Positions 33,001-39,000 of a stretch of 64,000 bases of DNA are shown piece after piece. Every line of letters starts with the position of its first letter. Positions within the stretch are counted from its first letter, which is position 1. The stretch lies in the NCBI RefSeq assembly GCF_036507355.1, contig NZ_AP027877.1. One strand, 5' to 3'. This DNA is from Escherichia coli. GTDB taxonomy: Bacteria > Pseudomonadota > Gammaproteobacteria > Enterobacterales > Enterobacteriaceae. Position numbers: made by a program.

Positions 33001-36000
33001 TCGTAATGCTCGCCCGAGTTCGGATACACCACCAGCGGCAGCACCGTTAAACCGTGTAAATGCTGCAACGCAGCAGTGGTGTTTTCCAGCGCAATACAGT
33101 TAATGCCTAGCGCCACCACCTGCGGATAACCCGCCAGCAACGCAACCACGTCACGCAGCGGCGTACCGTCGCTCAGGTGTTCGCTGTCGCGCAGGGTAAA
33201 TGAGAACCACGCCCGCGCACGCGGATATGCGGTCAACAGCTCGGCCAACGCCTCAATCTCGGAAAAATTCGGCAGGGTTTCGCAGGCCAGCAGATCGGCC
33301 CCGGCATCCAGCAAGGCTTCCACGCGCGGGCGATGAAACGCCTGAAATGCCTCAACGCTACAATGATAATCGCCACGGTATTCAGAGCCATCCGCCAGAT
33401 ACGCGCCGTAAGGCCCGACGGATCCCGCCACCAGAAGCGTTCCCGCCTGCGGGTTCTCTGCCAGATACGCTTCACGGGCTTTACGCGCCAGCTCCACGCT
33501 TTTGCCAATCAGCGCTTTCGACTGCGCTTCATCCAGACCTCGCGCGGCGAAGCCCGCCGGCGTCGCCTGATAGCTGGCAGTGATCGCGCATTGCGCCCCC
33601 GCCCGGTAGTAATCAAGATGCACTTCGCGGATAAGCTCCGGGTTTTCTACCAGCACTTTGGCTGACCACAGGCTGTCGGCTAAGTTACACCCTCGCGCTT
33701 CCAGCTCCGTCGCCATCGCGCCATCCAGCAGCAGGATATCCTGTTTATCAAGAAGAGCGCGTAACGGATTATTCTGCGACATGTTCTGGCTCCTGTTTTG
33801 CGTTTCGGGGTTGAGTAAGGAAATAAGCACCATAGCACAACGCAACAAACGGTAACCCGCACCACAACGCAATTCTCTGCGCTGGATCGAATGCCAGCCC
33901 AACACAGGCCACCAGGCACAGCACAAAACCTAATACTGGCACCAGCGGATACCACGGCGCGCGATAATGTAATTCACTCAATGCCTTACCTTGTTGCAGA
34001 TGACGGCGACGAAAAACAAAATGCGAGGCGCAGATACTCAGCCACACCGCTACCACCGCAAACCCGGAGATTGCCGACAGCGCAACAAATACCGTGTCCG
34101 GGGCCACCACGCTGGAAAACAGCGCCAGCACACCACCGAGCATACTGACCGACAGCGCCGTCAGTGGCACGCCGTTTTTCGTTACTCGCGCAAAACAGGC
34201 CGGTAGCGTACGTTCATTCGACAACGACCACAGCATGCGCCCGGAGGCATATAACCCGGAGTTCGCTGCAGAAAGAATAGCCGTCAGGATCACGAAGTTA
34301 AAAATATCAGCGGCGTACGGGATCCCTACTTTCTCAAATACCAGCACAAACGGGCTTTTCTCCACGCCCGCCTGCTGCATCGGGATCAGCGCTGCCAGCA
34401 CAAACACGGTGCCGATAAAGAAAATAATCAGTCGCGCGATGGTAGTACGAATCGCTACCGGGATAACTTTGCGCGGGTTTTCCGTTTCACCGGCGGCAAT
34501 GCCGATAAGCTCGGTACCCGAAAAAGCAAAGTTCACTGCCACCATAGTCATCAAAATCGGTAAGCCACCGTGCGGGAACCAGCCTTCTGCCGTGATATTA
34601 CTCAGCCCCGGCGCGGGCGAGCCATCCTGCATCGGAATAAAGCCGAAAATCGCCGCCCCACCGAGGATGATAAAGGCGATGATAGTGACCACTTTGACCA
34701 GCGAGAACCAGAACTCCCCTTCGGCAAAAAAGCGCGTGGAGATAACATTCAGACCAAAAATAATCGCGCAGAACACCACGCACCAGACCCATACCGGCAC
34801 CTGTGGAAACCAGTACTGCATACAGAATCCAGCGGCGGTAAAGCTCGAACCCAGCGCCACGGTCCAGGTCAGCCAGTAAAGCCAGGCCACGGTATACCCG
34901 GTAGCCGGACCAAGATAGCGCGCGGCATAAACGTGAAACGCTCCGGTCTCCGGCATCGCGACCGACAGCTCGCCCAGACACTGCATAACCAGCCAGACCA
35001 CCAGCGCACCAATCAGATAGGCCAGCAGCGTTCCCGCCGCTCCAGTGGTGGAAATGATGTACCCGGTATTGAAGAATAATCCTGTGCCAATCACGCCGCC
35101 CAAGGAAAGCATAATCAGGTGACGCGTTTTCATTGTGCGCTTCAGTGGCGCATTTTGTTGTGTTGTTTGCATATAACCTTCTAAACGCATGGACATCTAA
35201 ACATCCAAAGAAGGTTTGTTATACCGCGTTTGTTAACAGAATGCAAAGTCAACCCTGCACCAGACGCAGATGCCCGCGCCGGGCGCTTAATAGCGGGTGG
35301 GGATTAATAATCAGATACAAAAAGGGCCGCCAGCTCATAACGCCTCCGGAAGGTGCGAATAAGCGGGGAAATTCTTCTCGGCTGACTCAGTCATTTCATT
35401 TCTTCATGTTTGAGCCGATTTTTTCTCCCGTAAATGCCTTGAATCAGCCTATTTAGACCGTTTCTTCGCCATTTAAGGCGTTATCCCCAGTTTTTAGTGA
35501 GATCTCTCCCACTGACGTATCATTTGGTCCGCCCGAAACAGGTTGGCCAGGGTGAATAACATCGCCAGTTGGTTATCGTTTTTCAGCAGCCCCTTGTATC
35601 TGGCTTTCACGAAGCCGAACTGCCGCTTGATGATGCGAAACGGGTGCTCCACCCAGGCACGGATGCTGGCTTTCATGTATTCGATGTTGATGGCCGTTTT
35701 GTTCTTGCGCGGATGCTGTTTCAAGGTTCTTACCTTGCCGGGGCGCTCGGCGATCAGCCAGTCCACATCCACCTCGGCCAGCTCCTCGCGCTGTGGCGCC
35801 CCTTGGTAGCCGGCATCGGCTGAGACAAATTGCTCCTCTCCATGAAGCAGATTACCCAGCTGATTGAGGTCATGCTCGTTGGCCGCGGTGGTGACTAGGC
35901 TGTGGGTCAGGCCACTCTTGGCATCGACACCAATGTGGGCCTTCATGCCAAAGTGCCACTGATTGCCTTTCTTGGTCTGATGCATCTCCGGATCGCGTTG

Positions 36001-39000
36001 CTGCTCTTTGTTCTTGGTCGAGCTGGGTGCCTCAATGATGGTGGCATCGACCAAGGTGCCTTGAGTCATCATGACGCCTGCTTCGGCCAGCCAGCGATTG
36101 ATGGTCTTGAACAATTGGCGGGCCAGTTGATGCTGCTCCAGCAGGTGGCGGAAATTCATGATGGTGGTGCGATCCGGCAGGGCGCTATCCAGGGATAATC
36201 GGGCAAACAGGCGCATGGAGGCGATTTCGTACAGGGCATCTTCCATGGCACCGTCGCTCAGGTTGTACCAATGCTGCATGCAGTGAATACGCAGCATGGT
36301 CTCCAGCGGATAGGGCCGTCGGCCATTGCCCGCCTTGGGATAAAACGGCTCGATGACAGCGGTCATATTCTGCCATGGCAGAATCTGCTCCATGCGGGAG
36401 AGGAAAATCTCTTTTCGGGTCTGACGGCGCTTAGTGCTGAATTCACTATCGGCGAAGGTGAGTTGATGGCTCATGATGTCCCTCTGGGATGCGCTCCGGA
36501 TGAATATGATGATCTCATATCAGGAACTTGTTCGCACCTTCCCAAGAGAACGCAACAGCGCACTTGCTTTGCCACAGTTGAATTTTGTGCCGTAACGATG
36601 TGCAAGCATGTAAGCATAAGGAGTCAAGGTATAGCGTGTTACTTAGTTACTCGGATTAACAATCCCAACGTACAGAGCGGCGGATTTACAGAGTCAGCGC
36701 AGTCCCTGCTCCGGCAGTCAGTGGCAGGCGGCGTACTGAAGCAAACCATTATCGATACCGGCATCGGCGATACCATCGGCATGCTGATGTCACACGGCAA
36801 TATTTCTCCCTACATCATGGCGTGGTTGATAACCGTGCTGATCCGTCTGGCAACGGGTCAGGGCGTGGTCTCAGCCATGACGGCGGCGGGGATTATTAGC
36901 GCAGCAATCCTCGACCCGGCAACCGGTCAACTGGTGGGCGTCGACCCGGCGTTGCTGGTGCTGGCAACAGCGGCTGGCTCCAACACGCTGACCCATATCA
37001 ACGATGCTTCGTTCTGGCTGTTCAAAGGCTACTTTGATCTGTCGGTGAAGGATACGCTGAAAACCTGGGGTCTGCTGGAGCTGGTAAACTCCGTGGTTGG
37101 CCTGATAATCGTGTTGATCATCAGCATGATTGCATAACGTTGATACCGCTCTGGCCCACAGCGCCAGAGCGGTTTTCCATCCTGCCTCAACAATCCTCAA
37201 TAATCAGATATACCGCCTTCACCGGACCATGCACCCCAACCACCTTGATAAGCTCAATATCCGCCGTCGAGCTGGGTCCACTGATGATATTAATGCACGA
37301 TGGCATACGCTCACCGGCCTGTGCTTTCTGATGCAGTTTTTCTGCCAGCTGCGCCACGCGCGGCAGGATGGTGCTTTTACGCAGCACGAAAATAGAGGAC
37401 TCCGGCAACAGGCTCAGGGAGCGCCCGCGCTCCGGTGCGGAAAACAGCACCACGCCGCCGGACTCGGTCAGGCCATATTCGGCATACACCACGCCGACTT
37501 TCGCCTGCTCGGCCTGGGTAATATTTTCGCTACCACGCGCCGGATCCCAGACCACGGCGTTGCATTCCTGCTGCAAGCGTTCGGTGATGCCCAGCTCCAC
37601 CAGCCGGCTGTCGCCGCTCAGCACCACCGGCTGCTGACCCAATTCTTCGCACAGGCGCAGTGCCGCGTCTGCGGCCTGGTCCTCGCTGGTCAGTTCGCAG
37701 CGGGCCAGCATCACTTCGCTGGCAAACTGGATAAACGCAGAGCAGCGCTGCTCGGGGCTAAGCTCGGTCAGGCGCTCGTTGGCATAGTTGTTAACCGGTG
37801 CGGCATCCGCTTGCGGTTCGAAGCGCAGCGGGCGACCCAGCGCCTGGGCGATGGTGTTTAAAAACGCGGTACGGTTATCCATTCTTTTTCTCCTGCGCCT
37901 GATGTTTCTTAAACCAGCTGCGGAAGCTCTCGCCGTCAGCATCAGGCAGATCGCGCGCCTCCATCCAGTCACCAATCGCGCCAACCTTGAGCGGGGTTTT
38001 GCCGCCATTGATAAACCAGCTCGCCGCATGCGCGCCCGCCATCATCCCGACTTTCCACAGCCCCGGATGGCTATTGGCATAGGCGAACATCTTGATCGCC
38101 CGTCGCTCGGCTTTCGGCGTAATGCCCTCCTCGGCCATCACCCGGCGATGACGCAGGATCAGTTTTGACAACGGAATACGCACCGGGCAGACGCTGTCAC
38201 AAGCCGTGCACAAAGAACAGGCGTACGGCAGGTCTTTAAAATCTTTATAGCCGCCGAGCAGCGGAGAAATCACCGCGCCGATAGGGCCGGGATAGATAGA
38301 GCCATAGCCGTGCCCGCCGATGTGGCGGTACGCCGGACAGGTGTTCATACAGGCTCCGCAGCGGATGCAGCGCAGCACATCGCGAAACTCTGAGCCCAGC
38401 ACCTGCGAGCGACCGTTATCGACAATCACCAGATGGAACTCTTCCGGTCCGTCAACGTTGTCCGCCTCACGCGGGCCGGTCAGCCAGGTGTTGTAGCCCG
38501 TCAGACGTGCGCCCACGGCGCTGCGCGCCAGCATGGTAATCAGCACATCCACCTCGGCAAAGGTCGGCGCGATACGCTCCATGCCCATCACCGCAATGTG
38601 CGTTTTCGGTAGCGTGGTGCACATGCGCGCGTTGCCTTCGTTGGTCACCAGACACACCGAGCCGGTTTCCGCCACGGCAAAGTTACAGCCAGTAATACCG
38701 ATTTCGGCACTGAGGAAATCCTCGCGGATCTTCTGACGAATGAACAAGGTCATAGCTTCCGGGGTTTCCGGGCCGTCGTACCCCAGACGTTCGTTCAGCA
38801 CGCGGCGGATCTGGTAGCGATCTTTATGAATCGCCGGAACCACGACGTGCGAAGGCGGATCCTGATCCAACTGCAGGATATATTCCCCGAGATCGGTTTC
38901 GATCACCTGGATTCCGGCATCCTGCAACACATGGTTGACGCCGATTTCTTCGGTCACCATCGACTTGGACTTCACCACCTTCTGCGCATTTTTACTCTGC

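Follow-up and report, generated by a model that had tools for sequence, protein, structure and literature searches.

We analysed a 64,000-nucleotide stretch of the Escherichia coli contig NZ_AP027877.1 (assembly GCF_036507355.1), hereafter the window, in which a complete IS5-family insertion sequence (IS) lies between mmuP, the S-methylmethionine permease gene, and gntP′, the remnant of a GntP-family gluconate permease gene. The right terminal inverted repeat of this element (IRR) faces mmuP and the left one (IRL) faces gntP′. An earlier note had read the interval as a rearrangement joint made by IS activity, and this was borne out by comparison with other genomes, in which both junctions were found separately with other partners beyond the IS. 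Both flanks are linked to IRL in those genomes, so a crossover inside two IS copies cannot have placed them on one element. Strain PD7 (NZ_CP074047.1) carries both older junctions in a single island. We conclude, with a probability of about 0.55, that the joint is a derived, second-generation product inside a CP4-6-like island, generated by deletion between IS terminal repeats in an ancestor with two IS copies arranged as in PD7.

Structure of the IS element and its flanks

The element and the sequences that border it are as follows.

35348..36542, minus strand: IS5-family element, complete, an IS5/ISKpn26 mosaic of 1,195 bp, with IRR toward mmuP and IRL toward the scrap and gntP′
35348..35363: IRR terminal inverted repeat, ggaaggtgcgaaTaag; the same position in K-12 is occupied by IRL, ggaaggtgcgaaCaag
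36527..36542: IRL terminal inverted repeat, cttGttcgcaccttcc
35494..36474, minus strand: IS5-family DDE transposase, 326 aa without internal stop, NF033581 at 7.2e-109
35173..35347: mmuP upstream flank, 175 bp from the mmuP start codon to the IS, a truncated mhpT-mmuP intergenic region ending ...cataacgcctcc
36543..36638: scrap of 96 bp, first bases caagagaacg, without similarity to gntP or to Gp2 genes
36639..36734, plus strand: 3′ end of an inovirus-Gp2-type gene, 32 codons with one internal stop, fused to gntP′
~36736..37137, plus strand: gntP′ remnant of a GntP-family gluconate permease gene, C-terminal ~134 codons, NF007459 profile positions 310-446 of 447

The left terminus of the element (ggaaggtgcgaataag) is IRR and the right terminus (cttgttcgcaccttcc) is IRL. 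These names were assigned by the direction of the transposase gene, which makes the 36542 end IRL and the 35348 end IRR. As the earlier note had described, the ends are intact, both 16-bp termini being identical to those of K-12 IS5, and the transposase is uninterrupted. The left coordinate given there also stood, and the right end proved one base shorter, at 36542 instead of 36543. A length of ~1.2 kb and 16-bp inverted repeats of the form GGAAGGTGCGAA(C/T)AAG place the element in the IS5 group, and its transposase scored 363.5 bits against NF033581 (cut-off 140), as expected of a DDE transposase. This protein differs from K-12 InsH at 4 residues and from the copies in PD7 IS#2 (the second of the two PD7 elements) and in the circular record CP056566.1 at 1. 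No second IS5 copy or IS5 end was present within the window.

The element, called IS5 in the earlier note, appears not to be a plain IS5. Its identity was 95.15% to K-12 IS5 and 95.49% to an ISKpn26 copy, and it is built of blocks, with an IRL third of ISKpn26 type (alignment columns 18-371), an IRR end of IS5 type (columns 1012-1180) and a patchy middle. The closest copy was PD7 IS#2, at 99.16% identity, with other copies at about 94-95.5%.

The IS is flanked by ...aacgcctcc on the left and caagagaacg... on the right. The flanking tetranucleotides, ctcc and caag, differ as previously noted; a 4-bp duplication on exact ends had been named as the observation that would overturn the rearrangement, and we found none, as no 4-mer was shared in any register between the last 8 bases on the left and the first 8 on the right. 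Neither tetranucleotide matches YTAR, the IS5 target motif that was duplicated in 220 de novo insertions (PMC5009759). A simple primary IS5 insertion was not indicated, since identical 4-bp repeats were lacking and the flanks were not contiguous where the IS was missing. We also considered the end of the mmuP flank, which reads ...cataacgcctcc followed by ggaaggtgcgaaTaagcgggg in the window, as a cryptic IS5 end, and dropped this candidate because its ungapped match covered 4/16 bases.

Both junctions occur elsewhere with other partners

The survey covered 5,426 complete E. coli genomes from RefSeq. A K-12-type joint, in which the mmuP flank meets IRL, was present in 674 of them, K-12 included, and mmuP joined to IRR, as in the window, was present in none. 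The window joint gave 0 matches in metagenome and viral contigs, and among GTDB species representatives the search recovered Citrobacter loci alone, all without the IS. In K-12-like genomes, at PD7 IS#1 and in pMB8236_1, an IncF-type plasmid, the mmuP flank ended at the identical nucleotide, reading ...cataacgcctcc followed by ggaaggtgcgaaCaagtccctg, and the transposase gene was oppositely oriented. The partner beyond this mmuP-linked IS varied: K-12 has ykfC′ there, PD7 has a dapA-like fragment, and in pMB8236_1 a CTAG is followed by an hsdR fragment.

The other junction, IRL followed by caagagaacg..., was identical in the window, PD7 IS#2, strains 67-1, AR_0369 and 504239, and CP056566.1, and the scrap-gntP′ flank was linked to IRL in every strain inspected. 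Here too the IRR side was variable, leading to a Gp2 fragment in PD7 and to a hypothetical gene plus an MBOAT gene after CTAA in 67-1 and 504239; in AR_0369 the scrap-linked IS has lost part of its IRR side, beyond which lie P4-like phage genes. Two of the IRR-side flanks are canonical YTAR half-sites, ctaa before IRR in 67-1/504239 (4801..4804 of the 67-1 locus) and ctag after IRR in pMB8236_1 (5644..5647). Thus the variable IRR sides look like real transposition products, and the IRL junctions, with their non-YTAR ctcc and caag, look older and atypical.

Synteny comparison, which the earlier note had proposed as a check, showed that the uninterrupted mmuP flank leads to mhpT in Citrobacter and some E. 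coli, not to gntP. At this empty site, found in five Citrobacter species and in E. coli strains such as 504239 and 67-1, ...cataacgcctcc is followed by gttgccatgttttatctaaac... (gttgccatg...) and runs on into mhpT; the mmuP flank is therefore a truncated mhpT-mmuP intergenic region. The break in the empty site does not fall at a YTAR, and a CTAA 19 bp further along was unused. A small hairpin there (gttgcca...tggcacc) was considered as a recurrent break point and set aside as speculation, its stem being too short for known hairpin nucleases.

In E. coli with mmuP-mmuM beside mhpT, the genes mmuP..fbpC-afuB′-IS1..yagB..yagE-H-xynR-argF-IS1 stand in K-12 CP4-6 order (504239 locus 3249..9285), and mmuP-mmuM adjoins mhpT in Citrobacter also. 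Over 4 kb, afuB′-fbpC-mmuM-mmuP of the 504239-type block is ~99.9% identical to the window and to the K-12-like copy. To judge from gene order and identity, the 'prophage' mmuPM-argF segment looks like a transplanted chromosomal piece.

Both IS5 junctions recurred identically in pRHBSTW-00386_2 (CP056566.1), a 13,429-bp circular record from a UK wastewater E. coli, deposited as a plasmid and without a replication gene. Because the joint recurs in this independent record, we take it to be real. The record corresponds to window positions 30574..~43994. It comprises a single IS1 and everything between the two IS1 copies of the window, which lie in direct orientation. Its IS differs from that of the window by 1 mismatch, and 15 differences were counted in 11.1 kb outside IS1 (99.87% identical). 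The IS1-to-IS1 interval holds afuB′-fbpC-mmuM-mmuP-IS5-gntP′-lutCBA-dld-lldP, which in the window is embedded in a chromosome-like island. CP056566.1 may represent a circle excised through IS1, a tandem amplification or a by-product of assembly, and the 13.4-kb unit may circularise or amplify through IS1.

A crossover within two IS copies cannot produce the joint

A crossover inside two IS copies keeps each flank on its own IS end, and two IRL-linked flanks therefore cannot come to share one IS. This linkage rule covers deletions, inversions, cointegrates and circles, with any number of internal crossovers. An IS-by-IS crossover would call for one parental flank on IRL and the other on IRR, and we found both on IRL. 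We therefore rejected a single IS5-by-IS5 crossover starting from a K-12-like map, whether as a deletion, an inversion, a circle or a tandem-duplication junction. Since the parental forms carry both flanks on IRL, the joint must have arisen by an event at the boundary of the IS.

A proposed deletion between terminal repeats in a PD7-like ancestor

In PD7 both older junctions lie in one island, in the order mmuP/IRL-IS#1-IRR/dapA′..hsdMSR..Gp2′/IRR-IS#2-IRL/scrap-gntP′. The two elements are inverted copies, at the following positions of the PD7 locus.

14175..15371: IS#1
25633..26827: IS#2

IS#1 has the terminus ggaaggtgcgaaCaag on its outer side and IS#2 has ggaaggtgcgaaTaag on its inner side; these two termini form direct repeats 11,458 bp apart, with 12 perfect bases and 15/16 matches overall. 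Removal of PD7 positions 14175..25632 in silico gave a sequence colinear with window positions 25683..39311, in which the order and both junctions were reproduced exactly.

According to the proposed history, the mmuP flank would have stood on the IRL of an IS5, which is the insH1/mmuP junction of K-12, and scrap-gntP′-lutCBA-dld-lldP on the IRL of an ISKpn26/IS5 element. A PD7-like ancestor would have held the two IS copies inverted, about 10 kb apart. Deletion between the termini described above would then have taken out IS#1 together with the spacer, 11,458 bp by PD7 coordinates, and the mmuP flank would have passed, at the same nucleotide, to the IRR of IS#2, leaving the IS, the IRL junction and the neighbouring modules unaffected. 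A deletion of this kind would produce no target duplication and would leave mmuP intact. It would also explain why the two junction types share one non-canonical position, because the flank nucleotide would have been inherited from the old mmuP/IRL joint.

The two PD7 copies are near-reciprocal IS5/ISKpn26 hybrids: IS#1 is of IS5 type in columns 1-126 and of ISKpn26 type thereafter, and IS#2 is of ISKpn26 type in columns 1-425 and then of IS5 type. Such hybrids would be expected had an IS5 at mmuP earlier recombined with an ISKpn26 at gntP′ in an inversion with a conversion tract, and they may be the footprint of that event. That IS#2 of PD7 had simply inserted into a gene of Gp2 type was rejected, since it is bordered by ttct and caag and the two Gp2 fragments are not related to each other.

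We infer that a PD7-like genome was the actual ancestor and that the step relied on short homology rather than on transposase assistance. The sequence by itself does not tell slippage or illegitimate recombination on 12-16 bp from a deletion helped by transposase synapsis of the two ends.

Several points weigh against this history. No direct ancestor was found; PD7, which has itself lost lutA-lldP, is a collateral relative and not the parent. A deletion over 11 kb between repeats of 12-16 bp belongs to a rare class of events. The window IS differs from PD7 IS#2 at 10 sites in a patchy distribution, so that extra gene conversion or another parent IS has to be assumed. As IS5/ISKpn26 mosaics of 98.9% identity occur widely in other settings, the likeness of the window IS to IS#2 is suggestive only. 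The mmuP block is 99.85-99.88% identical across contexts, with ~7 variable sites in 4 kb, and these single-nucleotide polymorphisms are too few to polarise the direction of change. Finally, an in-situ flip of the mmuP-linked IS followed by an ordinary IS-by-IS deletion predicts exactly the same sequence, as discussed below.

Alternative histories

A joint made by transposase is a possible, though rather doubtful, origin. The gntP′-linked IS of a 504239/67-1-like genome would have undergone intramolecular replicative transposition into the intact mhpT-mmuP site, inverting the interval and joining mmuP to IRR, and the 13.4-kb IS1-bounded unit would later have entered a CP4-6-like island. In 504239 and 67-1 the empty site and the IS carrying scrap-gntP′ on its IRL do lie 19 kb apart with IRR facing mmuP, in the order mhpT-mmuP...argF...MBOAT/IRR-IS-IRL/scrap-gntP′. 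Inverting this 19-kb interval gives exactly afuB′-fbpC-mmuM-mmuP/IRR-IS-IRL/scrap, with the two IS1 copies then in direct orientation, and the resulting IS1-bounded unit is on record as the 13,429-bp circle. The IS5 family is known for replicative transposition and for adjacent deletions (PMC11708052), and local hops of IS5 have been described (PMC5009759). At position 34370, moreover, the window shares its allele with 504239 and not with K-12 or PD7; however, that allele is also present in an IRL-linked plasmid copy. This origin needs a second independent break at the very phosphodiester of the K-12-type joint. The break point, ctcc/g, does not conform to YTAR, which IS5 strongly favours (PMC5009759), and the CTAA 19 bp away was left unused; this is not decisive because non-canonical targets can occur. 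The predicted reciprocal joint (an IS end, ctcc and gttgccatg) was not found in the 5,426 genomes or in the metagenome collection: none of the 121 genomes with that mhpT allele showed an adjacent IS, and metagenomes gave 0 matches.

Somewhat less probable still is that the mmuP-linked IS5 flipped in situ through its own 16-bp repeats and then underwent homologous deletion with the gntP′-linked IS, the two being by then in direct orientation. This would yield the same final sequence, and on present data it cannot be separated from the terminal-repeat deletion. It predicts a hybrid IS, of IS5 type on the IRR side by mmuP and of ISKpn26 type on the IRL side by the scrap, and the gross pattern matches; however, PD7 IS#2 accounts for that pattern equally well. 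A flipped IS that retained its old far flank was not seen, mmuP joined to IRR occurring in 0 of the 5,426 genomes, and the flip asks for the same rare 12-16-bp exchange plus one more step.

By analogy with the targeted conservative mode of IS26, the IS5 transposase might itself have exchanged DNA precisely at the termini of two copies, end for end and without duplication, or an inside end might have attacked the boundary of the neighbouring copy. We consider such an event improbable. Were it true, the mmuP flank would have been handed from IRL to IRR in one enzymatic step, which would explain the shared non-YTAR nucleotide.

An assembly mis-join through the repeated IS is the least credible explanation. 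It is true that IS5 is multicopy in E. coli and that none of the complete RefSeq genomes of the species has the joint. However, an assembly error in which IS copies are collapsed likewise keeps each flank on its own end, so it cannot make mmuP/IRR, and the same joint stands in an independently assembled record from another strain.

Neighbouring genes and the wider island

The genes on either side of the joint, together with the IS1 sequences that delimit the 13.4-kb unit, are listed below.

30574..31334, plus strand: IS1 copy, aligning to annotated IS1 in PD7, 67-1 and AR_0369; left limit of the 13.4-kb IS1-to-IS1 unit
32850..33782, minus strand: mmuM, homocysteine S-methyltransferase, intact, NF007020 at 1.9e-136, protein identical to the K-12-like copy
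33769..35172, minus strand: mmuP, S-methylmethionine permease, intact, 467 aa, NF008484 at 3.5e-296, one substitution (V268A) relative to the K-12-like copy
37187..37882, minus strand: lutC
37875..39302, minus strand: lutB
39313..40032, minus strand: lutA
~40107..41852, minus strand: dld
42240..43793, plus strand: lldP
43989..44350: IS1 fragment, right of lldP

The description of mmuP as intact was confirmed, its 467 codons differing by the one substitution listed. On the other side, the permease is indeed reduced to its C-terminal third (GntP positions 310-446 of 447), but the remnant does not abut the IS, from which it is separated by 193 bp. Within this interval, 78 bp of the Gp2 scrap were 95% identical to the 3′ end of a Gp2-type gene of strain 23AR0998, with 28/32 identities by tblastn. 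The 183-bp stretch that comprises the scraps and the first gntP′ bases was present at ≥99% identity in 86 of the 5,426 complete genomes. Since the scrap-gntP′ stretch is common to these 86 genomes, the truncation of gntP is an older event that was not caused by this IS; we rejected the IS as the agent that cut gntP because of the 193-bp scrap and because the fusion of the Gp2 3′ end to gntP′ is older. RefSeq annotates the equivalents of gntP′ in PD7, 67-1, AR_0369 and 504239 as a partial permease without N-terminus, and a homologous-protein search for an intact copy of this gntP gave fragments only.

The genes lutCBA-dld-lldP are the rest of the module that travels with IRL/scrap-gntP′. They were also considered as the ykgEFG locus of K-12; this was rejected, as they form a separate island-borne lutABC-dld-lldP module. 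A scan of 35100..36800 found no consensus sigma-70 promoter. A 288-codon open reading frame (36271..37137, plus strand) begins inside the IS, antisense to the transposase, crosses IRL and the scraps and continues in frame into gntP′; it is probably fortuitous. In other genomes, gene callers predict 'permease' fragments of 130-210 aa at the gntP′ position.

The left edge of the island, downstream of betA (21519..23234), is another cluster of IS-made truncations, in which 23235..26272 holds four broken pieces.

24313..24717: tyrosine-invertase fragment
24714..25256: IS3-family transposase fragment
25293..25636: IS1 fragment
25646..26272: truncated intF-like integrase, 208 aa

At the right edge, 43989..44976 comprises the IS1 fragment and an IS2 fragment (TnpA plus the first 72 TnpB codons, 44397 to ~44980), after which ykfB follows. 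The GTPase-DUF932-yfjR-ypjK-yfjS genes of PD7 and AR_0369 are missing there. The core flanks, 1..22000 (bet/yah/ehaA) and 47000..64000 (pro, frsA, pepD), reached a best identity of 98.0-98.3% among the 5,426 genomes, and island blocks within 25683..44350 were 99.0-99.9% identical to copies in unrelated strains. From these identities the host lineage appears to be poorly represented and the island DNA to be horizontally shared.

Comparison with known systems and implications

Among the closest known counterparts is K-12 insH1 (IS5A), between ykfC′ and mmuP in the CP4-6 cryptic prophage, which has the same flank nucleotide, family and 16-bp ends and likewise lacks a target duplication (ctcc ... 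ataa). It differs in that IRL lies by mmuP, the transposase gene runs the other way, ykfC′ occupies the far side, and the element is a pure IS5, ~5% divergent from the window mosaic. The PD7 island shares the backbone intF..yagJ-IS1-afuB′-fbpC-mmuM-mmuP on one side and gntP′-lutCB plus ykfB..yafW on the other, but it keeps IS#1 and the ~10-kb spacer (dapA′, B3/B4, helix-turn-helix, hsdMSR, Gp2′) and has lost lutA-dld-lldP to IS1.

The proposed deletion may be compared with nearly precise excision of Tn10, which is transposase-independent and occurs between short repeats in the IS10 ends. In both, short direct repeats at the ends of two oppositely oriented IS copies would serve as deletion endpoints; however, Tn10 excision largely removes both IS copies, whereas one complete IS survives in the window. 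In HB101/RR1, the large deletion Δ(gpt-proA)62 leaves mmuP and its linked IS5 in place, with one endpoint exactly at the far (IRR) side of that element (PMC5379014). In that case mmuP/IRL is unchanged and new DNA adjoins IRR of the same IS, whereas in the window it is the mmuP junction that has acquired a new partner. An IS1-fbpC′-mmuM-mmuP-IS5 'transposon', bracketed by IS1 and IS5 (insH-1), has been described on plasmids (PMC4278250). Its gene content and IS1 end match those of the window, where IS5 is reversed and the unit runs on through gntP′-lut-dld-lldP to a second IS1.

The joint is another case of well-known IS-driven scrambling, ordinary save for the excluded IS-by-IS crossover, and nothing in it should surprise specialists in mobile elements. 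To the earlier description we add the mosaic nature of the IS, the prior truncation of gntP, the exclusion of internal recombination between IS copies, and a terminal-repeat deletion as the most economical history.

An IS without target duplication marks a spot where synteny cannot be trusted. Noting which IS end each flank carries is a cheap test between an IS-by-IS crossover and a boundary event, and here it excluded the default explanation. The insH1/mmuP junction of K-12 emerges as a reusable breakpoint that accepts different modules. In the window this joint has put a second lactate-utilisation module (lutABC, dld, lldP) beside mmuPM, which serves the use of S-methylmethionine. As both modules lie in a 13.4-kb IS1-bounded unit of which a free circle is also on record, they may be mobilised jointly.

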